DNA of 64,000 bases from Ostreococcus lucimarinus (GCA_000092065.1 CP000591.1), one strand, 5' to 3'. Shown: positions 15,402 to 64,000, counted from the first letter of the stretch. Notes: generated by a model from the sequence alone, not told the origin. Made by a program: numbers and translations.

Positions 15402-15528
15402 GGCGCGACGGCGTCTGCGGGGGACGACGCGCGACGCGGCGGTTCGGTCGCGGTTTCAAACGGTGGCGTCGCGCGGCGCGTGCGGTGCGTGTTTCCGCGG
15501 TGTCTGCGTTTGCTTGAATGAAATCACA

Positions 15529-22068: not shown

Positions 22069-22070
22069 AT

Positions 22071-22087
22071 CGTATGGGCAAACAGTA
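22071..22087 (-). promoter_or_regulatory. Fifth copy (reverse orientation) of the ACTGTTTGCCCATACG motif, in the K+ channel / IscA bidirectional promoter
   Basis: Plus strand reads cgtatgggcaaacagta; its reverse complement is tactgtttgcccatacg. Confidence 0.45.
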
Positions 22088-29270: not shown

Positions 29271-32214
29271 CTAATCGCTCGTGTGGACGATGCACTGACG
29301 GGCAGCGTCGTACGAGAAGTGCGAGTTTCTGAAGGCTGAACTGCCGTAAAACGGCGCCAAATCCTCGATGCCGTACGCTCTCGCCTTGCTCTCGAGATCG
29401 CGGCAACGCACTGTCGTCGTCTGACCCGCGGTATCCGCTTGACTGTTCGGCTTGGCGCCGACATTTTCCCAGCGCATCGTTTCCCGAAGTAGTCCGCGAA
29501 GAATTTCGAGGAGCAAAGCGTCGTAGTCGCGATGGAAGTGCGTGTATCGCGCAAACTTCTTCTGCAGGGTCTTTTGCACGGATTGCTTTTGAGTGCCGAT
29601 GAAAGACTGCAGCATGCATCCAATCGCAGCGTCGATGTCATCAGCCGATACTTGCTGGCTAAGTCGCATCGCCGCTCGAGCTTCACTCATTCGGATGATG
29701 GACTCGATGTGACGCACGGCGACGGGCATGCCTTCACGCGTCACAGACTCCTTTCGCAATTCGGCGTAGACTCGTTGAATCTTCGGCAAGTCTTGCTGAT
29801 TTAGCTTTGGGCGACATTCTTTTTTCGCGTACGAAATATACTTGCGCAACAATTTTTGATCAATCGGCTCGATGTCGTCGTCGTCATTTTCCCCAAATGG
29901 ATTCTGCAACGGCGCTTCCGGATCGTCTTCAAATCTCGGATGGCACTTGACGTGGGAGTGTACCACGAACTTAGCGAGCCTTTCATCTAAGACAGGGTCA
30001 ATAACGTCGCGAACGACGCAAAGAATATCGAAGCGGGAAAGGATTGGATCCGTCAGTTCAACGTTGTCGCTGAACGTCTTGGACGAATCGTATCGACCGC
30101 CGATGGGGTTCGCTGCGGCGATGACCGAGCATCTCGCTTGTAAAGAAGTCACAATACCAGCCTTGGAGATAGATATGGATTGCTGCTCCATTGCCTCGTG
30201 AATGGAGACGCGATCTTGCTCGTTCATCTTATCGAATTCGTCAATGAGGCACACACCGCGATCGGCGAGCACGAGGGCGCCGCCTTCCAGCACAAACTCG
30301 CGAGTCACCGGATCTTTGTGCACGGCAGCTGTTAAACCGACCGCAGACGCGCCTTTACCAGTGGTGTACACGGCGCGACCCGCGGTGGCTTGTGTGTACT
30401 TCAAAAACTGTGATTTCGCAACACCGGGATCCCCGAGCAACAACATGTTGATGTCGCCGCGCAATCGCGTCTTGCCCTTGACGAACTTTTCTTGACCGCC
30501 AAACAGCGCAAATGCGATACCCATCTTGATATCTTCGTGCCCGTGAATGGACGGCGCGATAGACTTCATGATGCGTCGAACGATTTTGGGATCACGGCTG
30601 AGCTTTCTGATGTCCTCGCGATCTTCATCCGTGAGATTGCCCGACGAGTACAAATCTCCTTTTCGTTTGACGTAATTCGCCTCGATGTACGTCGTGAATA
30701 CGGGAAATCCCTGCTGACGCGTGTTCAGCGACGCTTCGAAGTTATTTGTGTACACCCCGGTGACTTCAATCTCGTCACCCGGTTTCGCCATGTCAATCAA
30801 GTCGTTCAACACGATAACCTCTTTACTTCGCGGAATGCGGCCAGCCGGAACGCTTCCCGGAGATTCCTGCAACGTCAACTTCTGGTAGTTGCGATACACC
30901 GTCTTTGCGGAGTTAATCTGCCATCTACCTTTTTGATGGCACTCCGGGCAGGCATTCGGGCGCTCCTCTTCTCTGCTACTATTTTGGAAGATTGGACCGA
31001 CGTTGTACGAACACACCATGCACGTGTACGTCACATTTTTCAGTTGCGGAAACACACCCGTGCGTCGCGTCACGACACCGCTGACGCGAATCAATGAGTT
31101 TAAGTGCGATTGGCGAATATCACGAATAGCGTCCTCGACGGGCAAATCCACGATTCGCACGAACACGTCGGGATGAATGTCGCCGTACGACGGGTAAAGC
31201 TTCAACACTTCGGTGAGCGCGACTTCGTCGAATAGATCGAGCATGTCCTTCGGCGCGTCCGCGACCCAAACCGCGATCAGAGACTCACTCTTCGCCAGGT
31301 GCATGTAACTGATTTCCAAACTCTGCAAGTTGTTGTTGCACATCTCGCGAATCTTTTTGTGATAAAGCGACCGCCCGGCTTCGTCGACTTGTCCTTTGCG
31401 CAAAAACCGACTCAAACGCTTGCGAATCTCCACCTTCGTGCGATCCTTCGTGATCCACTCGCGAAGAGGGCAATCGTACACGTCAATGTTCACGTCGAAT
31501 TCCTCGTCATCGTCTTCCATGTCCCCATCTGCGGCGCGATCCGCGGCCCTTCGCCTTCGCGCCTGCCGCAACCATTCGTCCTCGCCCTCCTCGAGCGCCC
31601 GCGGCCGCACCCGACCCGCGCGTCGTCCACCACGATCTTCATAAATATCCCGCTGTTCCATCAACTCTTCCGCGCGCAATCGCGCCTCGAGTTCGGCCTC
31701 CGCATCGTACTCTTCGTCCTCCTGCGCCAGTCCCGCCTCTTCGTACTGGTCCAAGTGCGGCATCACTTGGTAATCCCTACGCCGTACGAAAATAACGCGT
31801 TCCTCACGTTCGTCAGTCGCGCGATCCGACGCTCACTCCATCCCCACCGTCGCGTCTCGCCCCGCGCGCCGCCCTTGGCGCGTCTTCCCCGCTCTCGCGT
31901 CGTCCGCGCGCGAGCGACAGCTCGAAATTCAAATATTCAAACCCGCGTCCCGTCCCCGTTCTCGCCCTCGCGCGTCGCGCGTCGCTCGCGTCGCTCCCGC
32001 ACCGTTCCATGTCGTTCATCAAATCCTCTCCATCGCTCTCGTCGTCGCTCCCGCGCGAGTCCTCGCTCGCGTCGCCGTCGCTCGCCCCGACGTCGTCGCG
32101 CTGATCGTGATGCGGCACGAACGGATCGTCCGCGCCCGCGCGCTCGAACGCGTCCCGCGCGTCGTCGTACGCGTCCGAGGCGTCGTCGCGGTCATCGCTA
32201 TCGCTCGTCGCCAT
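29271..32214 (-). CDS. MCM2: DNA replication licensing factor MCM2. Two exons, 32214-32003 and 31776-29271 (minus strand), about 905 aa.
   Basis: Exon 2 carries the MCM box (Walker A GDPGVAKSQ, IDEFDKM, arginine finger SRFD) and a Zn finger. Exon 1 (ATG 32214, MATSDSDDRDD...GEDLMNDME) is the acidic Ser-rich N-terminus. The splice ...DMER|DYQVMPHLDQYEEAGL reproduces the conserved MCM2 N-terminal motif. Confidence 0.9.
31777..32002 (-). other. Intron 1 of MCM2 (226 nt, phase 2, GTGCGG...CGTAG on the minus strand)
   Basis: Needed to join the two conserved MCM2 segments, which lie in different frames. It contains TTTGAATATTTGAATTTCGAG. Confidence 0.8.
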
Positions 32215-32454
32215 CGCGGCGCGCGCGCGTCGTCGCGTCGCGTCGCGTCGCGCGTCGTCGAGTGTCGCGCGCGCGTTTGAATTCGCATCACAGCTCGACG
32301 CGCGCGCGACGCGCCGGCGACGCGCCTTCGGCGAGCGCGCGCGCGGCGAGCGCGAGCGAGCGACGTCGCGCGCGCGCGCGCCGCGCGAGGACGAAACCGC
32401 GCGCGAGGACGACGAGGCGCGCGATCGCGGATCGCGAATCGCGACGCGCGGGCG

Positions 32455-34222: not shown

Positions 34223-35764
34223 TCACGCCGCAACCGATTGAGCGTTCGCGTCGCCGAGCACCGCCTCGCTCGCAGTCGGCGGGGCGAGGATCTTCCTGCT
34301 CTCGTGGAAGTATTGATGCGGCGTGTGCACGCCCGCCTCGATTTCGACGCCGTCGTGAATCGCCGCAAACGTCATACCGCACGCGATTTGGTAGTGCATA
34401 TTCGTCGCCTTCTCGACAATCGCGTGCGACTTAGCACCAGAGATTTTCAACGTACCGAGCAACTCGTGCAAACGTGCGCCGTTATCCTTGACGCCAGACG
34501 TGAGCGTCTTGAACGGACAACCGTGCGCGTCCTTCACGCCCGGATCCGCTGCGATGCACTGACCGCACGCGTGCGGGGTGTAGTTGACGCGCTTCCCTTC
34601 CTTACCGTACGCGTGTCTGATACCATACGCGTAATCTTTTTCAAACTTCTCCGCGGAGCATTTCGGGTGCTTTGTGAACTCTGTCTTCCAAAACACGAGC
34701 GCCTGGTCCAGAGGCAAGCCGATGCCCTTCAAATACAGTTGCAGTTGTCGTCGACCGCCGTGCGTCAGGTGATGATCTTTCTTGAGCGCCTTGTAAAGCT
34801 GGCGCATGCACAGCGGGAAAGACTCTTGCGTGGCTTCGATGCCGGCGATCGACATCGTGCCGTCTTCGCCTTGGAAATCGTACCCGCTTCCCGATCGACG
34901 GTTGTGCACAGATTTCAAAAGCGGCGTCAAACGGTGAGCCTCCTTCTTTTCAAACTTGTTGAAGAGCGTGATGGCTTCGGCGACCATCTTGTTCAGCATC
35001 GTCTTAAACCGACCGAACACGAGTTGATCGAGGGTTTCTTTACGAATCCACGCGTTTCCGCCGATCAAGTACGCCCGTCTCGACTTGACGAGCGGGCACA
35101 CCTCTTCGAAACCGACGACGAACCAACGCGACGCCTCGCTCGCCGCTTCCTCGCACATCCTCTGGTACTCCATCGTCCCGAGCTTACCATCTTTACTGAG
35201 ACTTCGACGCATCTGCCTATACTCGTGGTCCGCCATCAAGACGTCCCGCAAATCGTCCCGTCTCTCCCGCACTTCCTTCTCGCTCGCCCGCGCGTAATCG
35301 TTAAACCCATTCGTCCGCATAAACTCCATCTTCGCGTCCAAACTCAGCTCACCGTACCGATACTTGAACAACTCCAACTCGTTCTCCCGAAACCATCGCC
35401 TGTGTTCTTCGCTTCGACAGCTCGCCAACCTCAACAAAAAATGACTCGTCGCGTCTCTCGCCGCGCCCTCCGCGTCAAACGTCCCCCCCGTCGTCCGTCG
35501 CATGTTATATTCCTCCTCCGCGCTCGCGATCGCCCGTTTCAATTCCTCATCCTTCTTCCCACCGCTTCGCGCGTCGTCGATCGCCCGCAAGACGCCGTAC
35601 CGATCCATCGCCGCGCGCTCCAGGTACTCGATGGAGCGTTCGTCATCCGGCGCGGTGTTGTACGCGTCCAACCGCGCCGCGTTTCCGCCGTACTTTCGCT
35701 CGAGCGCGGTCTTGGCGCGCGCTTCCGCTTTCTCTCGATTCGTGCGCAGCGCGCCGAAGACCAT
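34223..35764 (-). CDS. PRIM2: DNA primase large subunit (PriL/PRIM2)
   Basis: PLCMRQLYKALKKDHHLTHGGRRQLQLYLKGIGLPLDQALVFW...HACGQCIAADPGVKDAHGCPFK is the Fe-S cluster domain of the eukaryotic primase large subunit. ATG at 35764. Confidence 0.85.
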   Translation of the reverse strand: MVFGALRTNREKAEARAKTALERKYGGNAARLDAYNTAPDDERSIEYLERAAMDRYGVLRAIDDARSGGKKDEELKRAIASAEEEYNMRRTTGGTFDAEGAARDATSHFLLRLASCRSEEHRRWFRENELELFKYRYGELSLDAKMEFMRTNGFNDYARASEKEVRERRDDLRDVLMADHEYRQMRRSLSKDGKLGTMEYQRMCEEAASEASRWFVVGFEEVCPLVKSRRAYLIGGNAWIRKETLDQLVFGRFKTMLNKMVAEAITLFNKFEKKEAHRLTPLLKSVHNRRSGSGYDFQGEDGTMSIAGIEATQESFPLCMRQLYKALKKDHHLTHGGRRQLQLYLKGIGLPLDQALVFWKTEFTKHPKCSAEKFEKDYAYGIRHAYGKEGKRVNYTPHACGQCIAADPGVKDAHGCPFKTLTSGVKDNGARLHELLGTLKISGAKSHAIVEKATNMHYQIACGMTFAAIHDGVEIEAGVHTPHQYFHESRKILAPPTASEAVLGDANAQSVAA

Positions 35765-35824
35765 GGCGGCGTCGCCGCCGTCGTCGCGCGTCGCCGTGTC
35801 GCGCGATCGTCGAGCTGTCGCCGC

Positions 35825-36039
35825 GTCGCGATTTCAAATTTCGTGGCGTCGGCGCCGCGCGCGGTGCGATTTCGAGGGTCGGCCTCGCGCACCGCGCACT
35901 GTTTACCCATACGCGCGTCGCGATTTCAAATTTCGTGGCGTCGGCGCCGCGCGCGGTGCGATTTCGAGGCGTCGGCGCCGCGCGCGGTGCGATTTCGAGG
36001 GTCGGACCTCGCGCACCGCGCACTGTTTACCCATACGCG
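35825..36039. repeat. Tandem duplication (about 92 bp unit x2, the second copy carrying an internal 31-bp re-duplication) in the primase/36129-gene bidirectional promoter
   Basis: Unit gtcgcgatttcaaatttcgtggcgtcggcgccgcgcgcggtgcgatttcgagggtcgg[c/a]cctcgcgcaccgcgcactgtttacccatacgcg at 35825-35916 and 35917-36039. Each copy carries TTTCAAATTTCG and CACTGTTTACCCATACGCG. Confidence 0.85.
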
Positions 36040-36128
36040 TCAACGCGCGGACGCGGCGCGACGCGCGACGCGCGCGCGCACGTCGCGACGCGCGCGCGAC
36101 CGCGACCGCGACCGCGCGGCGACGCGCC

Positions 36129-37364
36129 ATGTCCGCGGCGCTGGCGGAGACGATCGCGCGCGACGCCGCGGACGGACGCGCGGGCGAGTACGACCTCGCG
36201 GGATTCGGCGAGGCGTGGGTCGACGCGCTCGTCGAGGCGGCGTTCGCGACGCCGACGCGCGCGAAAGGAGGGTTTTACGCGTCGTGCAAGTTCATCGTCG
36301 GCGGCGGGAAGAAGACGCGGGCGAAGTACGACGATGAGGTGGTGAAACACTTGACGGCGGCGCTGCGCGCGAGGGGGTTCGAGGACGACAGAGGCGCGAG
36401 CGCGTGCGAGGCGTGCCAAGGGACGTATAAGTACCAGCACGACACGGATAAGGATTTAAAATACTTGCACGTGTTTCCGAGGGTGACGCACGAGGCGGAG
36501 GGGGGGGAGGCGGCGGCGGCGGCGGGCGGGACGCAGTCGCCCGAGTATCGCGCGTGCGCGTGCGATTTGGAGGAGTTCGAGCGATTGGTGGAGATGTATT
36601 GTCCGAGCTTTTCGCAAAAGCGCGCGCTGTTGCGCAGGATGAAGGTGATGGAGCACGCGCTCGGGGCGCTGGAACAAAAGGTGATCGCGATGGAGAGCTT
36701 GAATGATCGCGAGCAGACGATGTACGACTCGATGGTTGAAGTCGCGGCGAAGATTGAGTTCTTACAACAGGCGCTGGACGACATGATCAAGAAGGGTCGA
36801 TTGACGAAAGGCGAACAAGGAGAAATCGTCGAAGATTTGGAGCTCAAGCTCGAAGATTTGAACCTGATGGTGAACGAGGCGAACGAGGAGGGGAAGCCGA
36901 AGCGCGCGGAGATGCTCGAGAGCAAGAAGGAAATCGTCGTCAAGAAGATTGACTCGGTGCGCGCGAAACCTCCAATCGTGTACACGGTGCCGCACGAACG
37001 CGAACTTTTGGACTTGAAGAAGGAGCTGAACTCGCTGAAAAAAATTGCCGCACAATCGAAAGGAAAGTTGATGAGCGGTGCGGACGCGGCGAAGTGCGCG
37101 AATATTCCCAAGCTCGAAGAGCGCATAGCGAATTTGGAAAACTCCGAGGAAAAAGGATGGTACGAGGACGAATGCCGAGCGCTTCTCTTTCCACCGGTCG
37201 CCGAAAAGAAAGCACCGGCGAAGGCCAAGGCGAGTGGCGCCAAAACCAATTCGGGATGGCTCACCAAGGCGGCAAAGGGCGGATCGCGCGGCGGAGGTGG
37301 ATCCGCGAAAGCTTCGTCGACTCGTGGTCCTTCCAACCCGTTCGCGATGCTCGGCGACGATTAG
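36129..37364 (+). CDS. Hypothetical coiled-coil protein
   Basis: ATG at 36129 (MSAALAETIARDAADG...). Heptad-rich central region (LEQKVIAMESLNDREQTMYDSMVEVAAKIEFLQQALDDMIKKG...). The upstream part of ORF 35502 is antisense to the primase gene and is not coding. Confidence 0.6.
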   Translation: MSAALAETIARDAADGRAGEYDLAGFGEAWVDALVEAAFATPTRAKGGFYASCKFIVGGGKKTRAKYDDEVVKHLTAALRARGFEDDRGASACEACQGTYKYQHDTDKDLKYLHVFPRVTHEAEGGEAAAAAGGTQSPEYRACACDLEEFERLVEMYCPSFSQKRALLRRMKVMEHALGALEQKVIAMESLNDREQTMYDSMVEVAAKIEFLQQALDDMIKKGRLTKGEQGEIVEDLELKLEDLNLMVNEANEEGKPKRAEMLESKKEIVVKKIDSVRAKPPIVYTVPHERELLDLKKELNSLKKIAAQSKGKLMSGADAAKCANIPKLEERIANLENSEEKGWYEDECRALLFPPVAEKKAPAKAKASGAKTNSGWLTKAAKGGSRGGGGSAKASSTRGPSNPFAMLGDD

Positions 37365-63549: not shown

Positions 63550-63634
63550 CGACGAGTGCGGCGGCGTCGACGCGCGCGCGGATCGCGCGGCGCGCGTCGA
63601 AAATCGGTCGCGTACTGTTTGCCCACACGCGACG

Positions 63635-63647
63635 TTTTCGCGCCAAA
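63635..63647. promoter_or_regulatory. Canonical E2F-type site TTTTCGCGCCAAA (copy 1)
   Basis: Matches TTTSGCGC and the DHFR-type TTTCGCGCCAAA element. It lies between two divergent genes. Confidence 0.5.
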
Positions 63648-63702
63648 TTCATTGACATGTCGCCTCGCACATCGGTCGCGGACTGTTTGCCCATACGCGA
63701 CG

Positions 63703-63715
63703 TTTTCGCGCCAAA
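63703..63715. promoter_or_regulatory. Canonical E2F-type site TTTTCGCGCCAAA (copy 2)
   Basis: Identical 13-mer in the second repeat copy, 12 bp upstream of the ATG at 63727. Confidence 0.5.
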
Positions 63716-63726
63716 TTCATTGACAA

Positions 63727-64000
63727 ATGTCGCCTCGACGACGCGGACGCGCGACGACGACGCCGGCGCCGACGCGAGAGCGCGTCGCGACGACGGACGC
63801 GACGGCGCGACGGGAGGCGGCGATGACGGCGCGCGCGACGCGCGAGCGCGACGACGGCGCGCGGGCGACGACGGACGAGGGCGGCGCGCGGGCGACGACG
63901 GACGAGGATCGCGCGCGGCTGACAAAGTATTGGTTGCGACGACGGTGCTCGACGGGATCGCACGCGAGCGAGGCGACGGAGGTGGGGATGCTGACGGGAG
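63727..64000 (+). CDS. 5' end of a gene continuing beyond the window (unknown product)
   Basis: ATG at 63727, open to the window end (MSPRRRGRATTTPAPTRERVATTD...RARLTKYWLRRRCSTGSHASEATEVGMLTG). It lies immediately downstream of the E2F-containing direct repeat. Confidence 0.4.
   Translation, partial: MSPRRRGRATTTPAPTRERVATTDATARREAAMTARATRERDDGARATTDEGGARATTDEDRARLTKYWLRRRCSTGSHASEATEVGMLTG

Follow-up and report, generated by a model that had tools for sequence, protein, structure and literature searches.

A recent tandem duplication in the spacer between the DNA primase gene PriL and its divergent neighbour in Ostreococcus lucimarinus, and a dispersed 16-bp motif within it

Does a segment repeated between two divergent genes tune their expression, or is it an ordinary length variant? 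The question is raised by the spacer that separates the gene for the DNA primase large subunit (PriL) from its neighbour in Ostreococcus lucimarinus CCE9901, studied here within a window of 64,000 nucleotides (the whole stretch of DNA analysed), a 64-kb sequence that is eukaryotic, of high GC and high CpG content, and densely packed with genes. A sequence-only reading had seen in this spacer a duplicated regulatory module of an S-phase gene and had proposed dosage tuning of cell-cycle transcription. We consider it fairly probable, instead, that a 92-bp unit forms the core of a bidirectional promoter and that its duplication is a young, private or rare, near-neutral length polymorphism. The genes and the spacer are as follows.

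34223..35764, minus strand: PriL (DNA primase large subunit) coding sequence, an intronless ORF of 513 aa
36129..37364, plus strand: divergent neighbour, an uncharacterised coiled-coil protein of 411 aa, exact match to XP_001420271.1 (O. lucimarinus CCE9901)
35765..36128, no strand: bidirectional spacer between PriL and the coiled-coil gene, 364 bp (240 bp in wild single-copy alleles)

The gene identities given earlier hold, PriL by the domains PF26466 and PF04104 of its homologues (identity to O. tauri PriL is 69%) and the neighbour by its exact database match; Pfam and PDB searches with the latter gave no match. The two genes are divergent in five lineages and, with a spacer of 240-364 bp, form what is usually classed as a bidirectional promoter. 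Phosphorylase, coiled-coil gene, PriL, methyltransferase and MCM2 follow one another in the same order in O. tauri and in three further lineages.

The anatomy of the repeat is plain from exact repeats of 56 nt (35822-35877 = 35914-35969) and 33 nt (35883-35915 = 36007-36039) and from TRF, which reports a period of 123 and 2.0 copies at the spacer with a score of 338, the top score of the 64-kb window, and a nested array of period 31 at 35930-36005 with 95% matches. Both the duplicated unit of about 92 bp and the internal 31-bp duplication of its second copy, as first noticed, are thereby confirmed.

35822..35913, plus strand: copy 1 of the unit, 92 bp, identical to the one unit carried by L004, an environmental haplotype
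35914..36037, plus strand: copy 2, 124 bp, made up of the 92 bp, a 31-bp duplicate and an extra A at 36006
35939-35969 and 35970-36000, plus strand: two 31-bp repeats CGTCGGCGCCGCGCGCGGTGCGATTTCGAGG (TRF period 31, 95% matches)
35866..35877, 35958-35969 and 35989-36000, plus strand: sub-repeat GCGATTTCGAGG, three copies in the spacer
Sequence spanning the copy junction: CCCATACGCGCGTCGCGATTTC

The copies stand head-to-tail and directly adjacent, at a period of 92 with nothing between them and zero substitutions, and together they account for 216 bp of the 364 bp that separate the PriL ATG (35764, minus strand) from that of the neighbour (36129). Homology between the junction and the flank is limited to CG, and neither terminal inverted repeats nor a target-site duplication are present, which argues for a local duplication rather than an insertion of foreign DNA. 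At no other place in the window, nor elsewhere in the loci retrieved, does the 92-bp unit occur. With 6 occurrences in the window and 3.3 expected, GCGATTTCGAGG is no more frequent than chance allows, and the same holds for GCGATTTCGWGG.

Look-ups with the PriL protein led to ten conspecific environmental contigs that differ in sample and assembler. A single unit is present in nine of the nine that can be read at the spacer, which is about 240 bp long there, and PriL is 99-100% identical; each of the nine has exactly one TTTCAAA/TTTGAAA box, one GCGATTTCGAGG and one copy of a 16-mer, elements that are described below, and the tenth (L005, a JGI scaffold) has an N gap at the spacer. The nine single-copy contigs are unequal in weight, as tandem repeats can collapse in short-read metagenome assemblers: they include MEGAHIT k119/k141 contigs, one contig of 550 kb, and some that are apparently long-read assemblies, judging by names and indel errors. 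Haplotype L004 and CCE9901 agree in every base over the initial 151 nt and the final 122 nt of the spacer, and the net difference between them is exactly a 124-bp insertion in CCE9901. Among JGI gene calls running through the spacer, P0141, P0146 and P0147 encode the single-copy sequence, and P0140 (two contigs) represents a wild allele that has the 31-bp sub-duplication yet one 92-bp unit. The 31-bp repeat thus varies in nature and segregates as a polymorphism of its own; two slippage events, or two alleles combined, may underlie the arrangement in CCE9901. The O. tauri spacer is 125 bp long and those of three other lineages 242-404 bp; none is duplicated, the unit being single-copy or absent in these four other Ostreococcus lineages. 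Since one wild haplotype equals CCE9901 minus the 124-bp insertion and the relatives are single-copy, the duplication is recent; it is private to CCE9901 or rare, not conserved or common. The comparison of orthologous promoters proposed with the sequence-only reading has therefore a divided outcome: copy number does vary within the species (two units in CCE9901, one in nine wild contigs, the sub-duplication only in P0140), but no other lineage has the duplication.

Two elements lie in each copy of the unit. The first is the TTTCAAA/TTTGAAA box, which is listed here together with its partner motif and its counterparts in MCM2.

35830..35843, plus strand: CPP/CHR-like box, copy 1 (GATTTCAAATTTCG), at a distance of 66-79 bp from the PriL start codon, with TTTGAA on the PriL-sense strand
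35922..35935, plus strand: CPP/CHR-like box, copy 2 (GATTTCAAATTTCG)
35811..35819, plus strand: partner motif CGAGCTGTC, single copy, just beyond the duplicated unit
31914..31941, minus strand: MCM2 intron composite TTTGAATATTTGAATTTCGAGCTGTCGC, inside intron 1 (31777-32002)
32274..32299, minus strand: MCM2 promoter box GTCGAGCTGTGATGCGAATTCAAAC; counterpart in the O. tauri MCM2 promoter, AGAATTCAAAAAC

Exactly two matches to GATTTCAAATTTCG occur in the window, both in the PriL spacer, and the chance expectation for TTTSAAAWTTYS is 0.09. The TTTCAAA heptamers at 35832 and 35924, which are TTTGAAA when read in the sense of PriL, agree with the TTYGAA/TTYRAA core, so that the TTYGAA-type hexamer attributed to the unit is borne out, and it proves to be a phylogenetic footprint in five lineages: TTTSAAA is found in 5/5 orthologous PriL spacers of five Ostreococcus lineages, 43-161 bp from the ATG, the chance of this heptamer being 0.0005-0.0115 per spacer (spacers of 56-77% GC) and the product about 2e-12. 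MAFFT missed the conserved box in the five spacers, the lengths of which are too unequal, and anchored motif positions were used. The box context reads GAGCTGTCGCCGCGTCGCGATTTCAAATTTCG in O. lucimarinus, AGCTGTCGGTTTTCAAAAATTTAAAC in O. tauri, GACAGCTCG...TTTTGAAAATTTTCAAAC in L013 and L014, and GACAGCCACGGGATTTGAAAATTCAAAC in L015, and GACAGCTC/GAGCTGTC adjoins TTTSAAA in the PriL spacers of O. tauri, L013, L014 and L015 and in the MCM2 intron. Non-coding TTTSAAA is confined in the window to the PriL spacer and one site upstream of Nup96. The latter, at 15454-15474 and 53 bp upstream of this nucleoporin gene, reads TTTCAAACGGTGGCGTCGC, like the PriL box context TTTCAAATTTCGTGGCGTCGG.

A likeness to MCM2 had been noticed as well, and it stands in part: the composite does recur, but the element in question (TTTGAATTTCG, 31923-31933, minus strand) lies in the first intron of MCM2 and not in its promoter. 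Intron 1 is 226 nt long (31777-32002, minus strand), has GT...AG ends and the branch point GACTGACG, and its removal yields an open MCM2 frame of 905 aa with the junction MER/DYQ, an upstream ORF of 133 aa being the first exon. The intronic composite of TTTGAA/TTTCAAA and GAGCTGTC is kept in all five Ostreococcus lineages, which suggests a putative intronic regulatory element or internal promoter. Expression of DNA-replication genes in O. tauri is highest at ZT12 in long days and at ZT8 in short days; the CPP (CXC) motif is enriched in the corresponding clusters, and two CPP factor genes have their maxima at those times (PMC12216367). The preferred reading of the box is a putative CPP/CHR-like element of replication genes, an assignment based on motif shape and on enrichment published for another species (O. 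tauri). The replication genes examined were PriL and MCM2, these two only, and both are box-positive; a tblastn search with MCM2 and PriL over the fetched metagenome loci gave no further replication-gene promoters. The box could also lie within the PriL 5′ UTR. As for the composite regulatory module postulated in the promoter of PriL, the conserved box and its recurrence in MCM2 speak for it, but the spacer serves two divergent genes and the module is therefore not assignable to PriL alone. A search of the CCE9901 PriL spacer for the E2F site TTTSSCGC gave no match, TTTCGTGG missing the consensus. Position 35844, beside the box, is polymorphic (T/C), with TTTCGTGG in CCE9901 and some wild haplotypes and TTTCGCGG in four wild haplotypes; the wild C allele, TTTCGCGG, matches only the loose plant E2F pattern WTTSSCSS.

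The second element is the 16-mer ACTGTTTRCCCAYACG, which recurs at two other places in the window.

35898..35913, plus strand: 16-mer ACTGTTTACCCATACG, copy 1, PriL spacer
36022..36037, plus strand: 16-mer ACTGTTTACCCATACG, copy 2, ending 91 bp short of the ATG of the coiled-coil gene
22071..22086, minus strand: third locus of the 16-mer, here ACTGTTTGCCCATACG, in the spacer that separates genes for a K+ channel and an IscA-type protein
63603..63737, plus strand: promoter module of 68 bp x 2 with the 16-mer and the E2F-type site TTTTCGCGCCAAA (TRF 240, second-best in the window)

In all, the window holds five sites of the 16-mer at three loci against 0.13 expected; for ACTGTTTACCCATACGCG, two sites lie in the PriL spacer and near-identical ones at 22069-22086 (minus strand), 63614 and 63682, five against 0.01 expected. 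All three loci are divergent spacers, namely that of the K+-channel and IscA genes at 22 kb, that of PriL and the coiled-coil gene, and one between two unknown genes at 63.6 kb, and their likeness is confined to the 16 bases. Every site in the window is in sense orientation to an ATG 30-125 nt downstream. The site at 22071-22086 comes directly after a TATA-like TTTATATTAACGTTAT within a K+-channel/IscA spacer of 184 bp, and TTTAT or TATA also precedes the 16-mer in many metagenome contigs.

Beyond the window, a metagenome scan matched the 16-mer in at least 120 contigs, and 99 of those listed have a GC of at least 0.54; among the matches listed, contigs of that GC have a median CpG observed/expected ratio of 1.48, against 1.70 for the window. 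A scan of a viral collection, which serves as a baseline only, gave 51 chance-like matches with a median GC of 0.43, 6/51 at a GC of at least 0.54. In the high-GC contigs among the matches listed, the 16-mer is non-coding at 106 of 112 sites. Where the spacer could be classified on contigs without introner-like repeats, again among the matches listed, 14 spacers are divergent, 9 tandem and none convergent, and in 7/9 of the tandem ones listed the 16-mer is sense to the downstream gene, a split that is not significant. Intraspecies SNPs near the PriL-spacer 16-mer hit degenerate positions of the wider consensus. A k-mer enrichment around the 16-mer yielded no partner motif, ATTTCGAG being recurrent by eye yet not enriched, and a full-text literature search for the 16-mer returned unrelated primer matches only and no description. 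As a motif specific to S-phase genes, ACTGTTTACCCATACG cannot be upheld, for it is also present in the K+-channel/IscA spacer and across Mamiellales-like DNA. Judged by its distribution, the 16-mer is a dispersed, promoter-associated motif of Mamiellales that is not S-phase-specific, and it behaves like a promoter-associated, putative protein-binding site. In four contigs (L047, L055, L064, L075), lineage-specific short tandem repeats (e.g. GTACCAGCTC) flank an arrangement of TTAAT, the 16-mer and ATTGGCGCGTTCGGACATTCGG together with the palindrome GTACGTACCAGGAAATTCCTGGTAC; this four-contig architecture has no Rfam match.

The module at 63603-63737, which also contains ATTGAC and whose TTTTCGCGCCAAA is a canonical E2F-type site, is a second tandem duplication on the 16-mer and lies upstream of a gene that extends beyond the window and encodes a 223-aa protein of unknown function; neither this protein nor a 111-aa protein has a Pfam or PDB match. 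The module is single copy in the relatives L188-L191, in which the spacer is strongly diverged, yet ACTGTTTAGCCATACG (15/16 of the 16-mer), the E2F-type site and ATTGAC are kept in order. By simple counting, with about 33 spacers in all and three of them bearing the motif, the chance that two duplications fall on motif-bearing ones is about 0.006, and the two could reflect selection for extra sites or a motif-linked tendency to duplicate. One of the relatives, L188, is the same contig as L010 of the PriL survey (contig_19581 of ERZ10646630), and its divergence from CCE9901 is very uneven: the PriL spacer, insertion aside, differs at 1/152 positions compared, and about 28 kb away a 515-aa SET-like protein is 90% identical to that of CCE9901 and the spacer downstream is heavily diverged. 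The pattern suggests a possible mosaic ancestry or recombination.

The unit, in the account that we favour, would be the core of a compact bidirectional promoter common to PriL and the coiled-coil gene. On the PriL side, the TTTCAAA/TTTGAAA box and GAGCTGTC would make up a putative CPP (tesmin/TSO1 CXC, CHR-like) site, to which the late-day, S-phase expression usual for replication genes would probably be due, and on the other side the 16-mer is probably the site of a sequence-specific factor used in many Mamiellales promoters. The unit was recently copied head-to-tail in CCE9901 with a net gain of 124 bp, likely by replication slippage or unequal exchange, and a second slippage, between 31-bp-spaced ATTTCG(T/A)GG repeats, would be either a later event or inherited from the wild allele. 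As head-to-tail copying leaves each gene its native proximal arrangement, a box remains at -66 relative to the PriL start codon and a 16-mer at -91 relative to that of the neighbour, with an extra box and an extra 16-mer between them. The effect on expression would probably be little or only modest.

The doubled sites might alternatively be adaptive, raising or sharpening cell-cycle transcription of PriL, of the neighbour or of both, and such dosage tuning would fit the doubling of both elements with the proximal layout of each gene preserved, the variation of the 31-bp sub-repeat in the wild, and the second module with 16-mer and E2F-type site that is duplicated in CCE9901 and single copy in relatives. 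We nevertheless regard it as unlikely. All nine readable wild haplotypes carry one unit, no other species has the duplication, and undiverged copies within flanks identical to those of a wild haplotype indicate a very young allele with no sign of spread; moreover, exact look-up of eight versions of the ORFs running through the doubled spacer, and of the neighbour protein, in a collection of 15 billion proteins gave no other gene call through a duplicated spacer. Dosage tuning by the duplication, as put forward on the sequence alone, is thus unsupported.

The 16-mer has a second context. As ACTGTTTGCCCATAC(A/G), it is the core of very abundant repeated introns of 78-146 nt in Micromonas-like polar metagenome contigs (L025, L027, L034, L035, L038, L039, L044, L054, L061 and others), which have the form AG/GTACGTATTGGGC..TTTCCCAAATCCAGGCAC-ACTGTTTGCCCATAC(A/G)-AGACTGACAC...AG, the slash marking the exon boundary, as many as 16 sites occurring within 12 kb. 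The 16-mer is always sense in these introner-like introns and stands directly 5′ of the CTGAC branch point, and excising GT...CTGAC...AG opens the reading frame in 34/41 cases, against 9/41 when unspliced. At the 16-mer sites of the window, splice sites, a branch point and the GT...CTGAC...AG signals are all absent. The repeated introns are probably the polar E2-IE introner families (PMC4540971), an assignment made by habitat, length and architecture only. We tentatively propose, as a possibility that falls well short of being probable, that the 16-mer is the recognition site of one Mamiellales-wide factor that marks unrelated Ostreococcus promoters and is carried by polar-Micromonas introners. 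If true, promoter architecture and intron-generating elements would be linked by one protein (a general regulatory factor or a transposase relative), and a tightly bound factor could explain, through fork stalling and template switching, why the two cleanest duplications of the window lie on the 16-mer.

The intron context also lends some credit to an action at the RNA level, in which the segment would be transcribed as 5′ UTR or promoter-associated RNA and the 16-mer would be an RNA signal; its constant sense orientation 5′ of the branch point, the 7/9 tandem-spacer sites sense to the downstream gene among the matches listed, and the sense orientation of all window sites to a nearby ATG could be taken in this way. 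We doubt it, however, because a site between divergent genes is sense to one of them whichever way it points, the 7-versus-2 split is not significant, and splice signals are lacking around the window sites, while no Rfam match at an E-value of 1 or less was obtained over 35300-36600 or at nine motif-bearing loci and the unit folds no better than shuffled sequence (z = -0.46). Two introner variants likewise fold no better than shuffles; in the folding of one variant, the 5′ splice site pairs with the 3′ half of the 16-mer.

That the extra sequence is a mobile-element insertion or an introner/MITE relic, as the abundance of the repeated-intron family in Micromonas-like contigs might suggest, is very improbable, as the 124 bp are a head-to-tail copy of adjacent sequence with neither inverted repeats nor a target-site duplication, and the three window loci resemble each other in the 16-mer only, with no splice sites or branch point. 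An assembly artefact in the reference genome, which was Sanger-finished, is just as improbable: every readable metagenome contig has one copy and L005 an N gap, but copy 2 has private changes (the 31-bp duplicate, the extra A) that assemblers do not invent, and independent reads with exact CCE9901 proteins break a contig where the repeat predicts. The sequence common to both copies starts at 35822, so that the last unique 31-mer is 35821-35851, and with the unit present twice a k=31 graph, as used for the Logan assemblies, must break at 35851; the Logan contig of run SRR1179203, which encodes exactly the CCE9901 PriL, ends at window position 35851. The duplication is thus probably not an artefact. 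No mention of SRR1179203 was found in the searchable literature.

The duplication, an ordinary young length variant and not a conserved regulatory design, offers a natural experiment of one unit against two on a minimal bidirectional promoter, and reporter assays are feasible in the species group. More useful is the short dictionary of candidate cis-elements that emerges for a very compact eukaryotic genome, comprising the CPP/CHR-like box with GAGCTGTC in PriL and MCM2 and the 16-bp motif shared with Micromonas introner-like introns. If confirmed, the 16-mer would open a way to a general promoter factor and perhaps to the biology of introners, and its link with introner-like introns is the part worth following, more than the duplication, which is of modest interest.

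Unstable tandem repeats (VNTRs) and small tandem duplications are known in yeast promoters. The present case resembles them as a head-to-tail promoter segment that holds putative factor sites, attributable to slippage or unequal exchange, with an intraspecies copy number of one or two units and of one or two 31-bp sub-repeats; it differs in that the unit of 92 bp is complex, not a micro- or minisatellite, and in that two states are seen. Micromonas introners (E2-IEt1 and E2-IEt2 of the polar clade E2, PMC4540971) are comparable through the 16-mer found 5′ of CTGAC in metagenome introns, and the 'branch-point companion motif' of the Micromonas introner IE-A (PMC3879977) belongs to a related system, whereas the 16-mers of the window are isolated in promoters, without splice signals or flank similarity. 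With the CHR sites of animals (LIN54/DREAM) and the CPP/TCX sites of plants, the box shares a TTTGAA/TTTCAAA core, which commonly occurs in pairs or as a palindrome (in two lineages, TTTGAAAATTTTCAAA), a location near the start codon of cell-cycle genes, and conservation across species. The animal CHR marks G2/M genes and has a CDE partner, whereas the box here is paired with GAGCTGTC/GACAGCTC at S-phase genes, in MCM2 also inside an intron, and its binding is predicted. In yeast, general regulatory factors recognise sites such as TTACCCG (Reb1) and ACACCCATACA (Rap1). The organism is a different one, but like these sites the 16-mer is long and of high information content, contains TTACCCA/ACCCATAC, and occurs at unrelated genes, at about one locus per 20 kb, with enrichment in divergent spacers.
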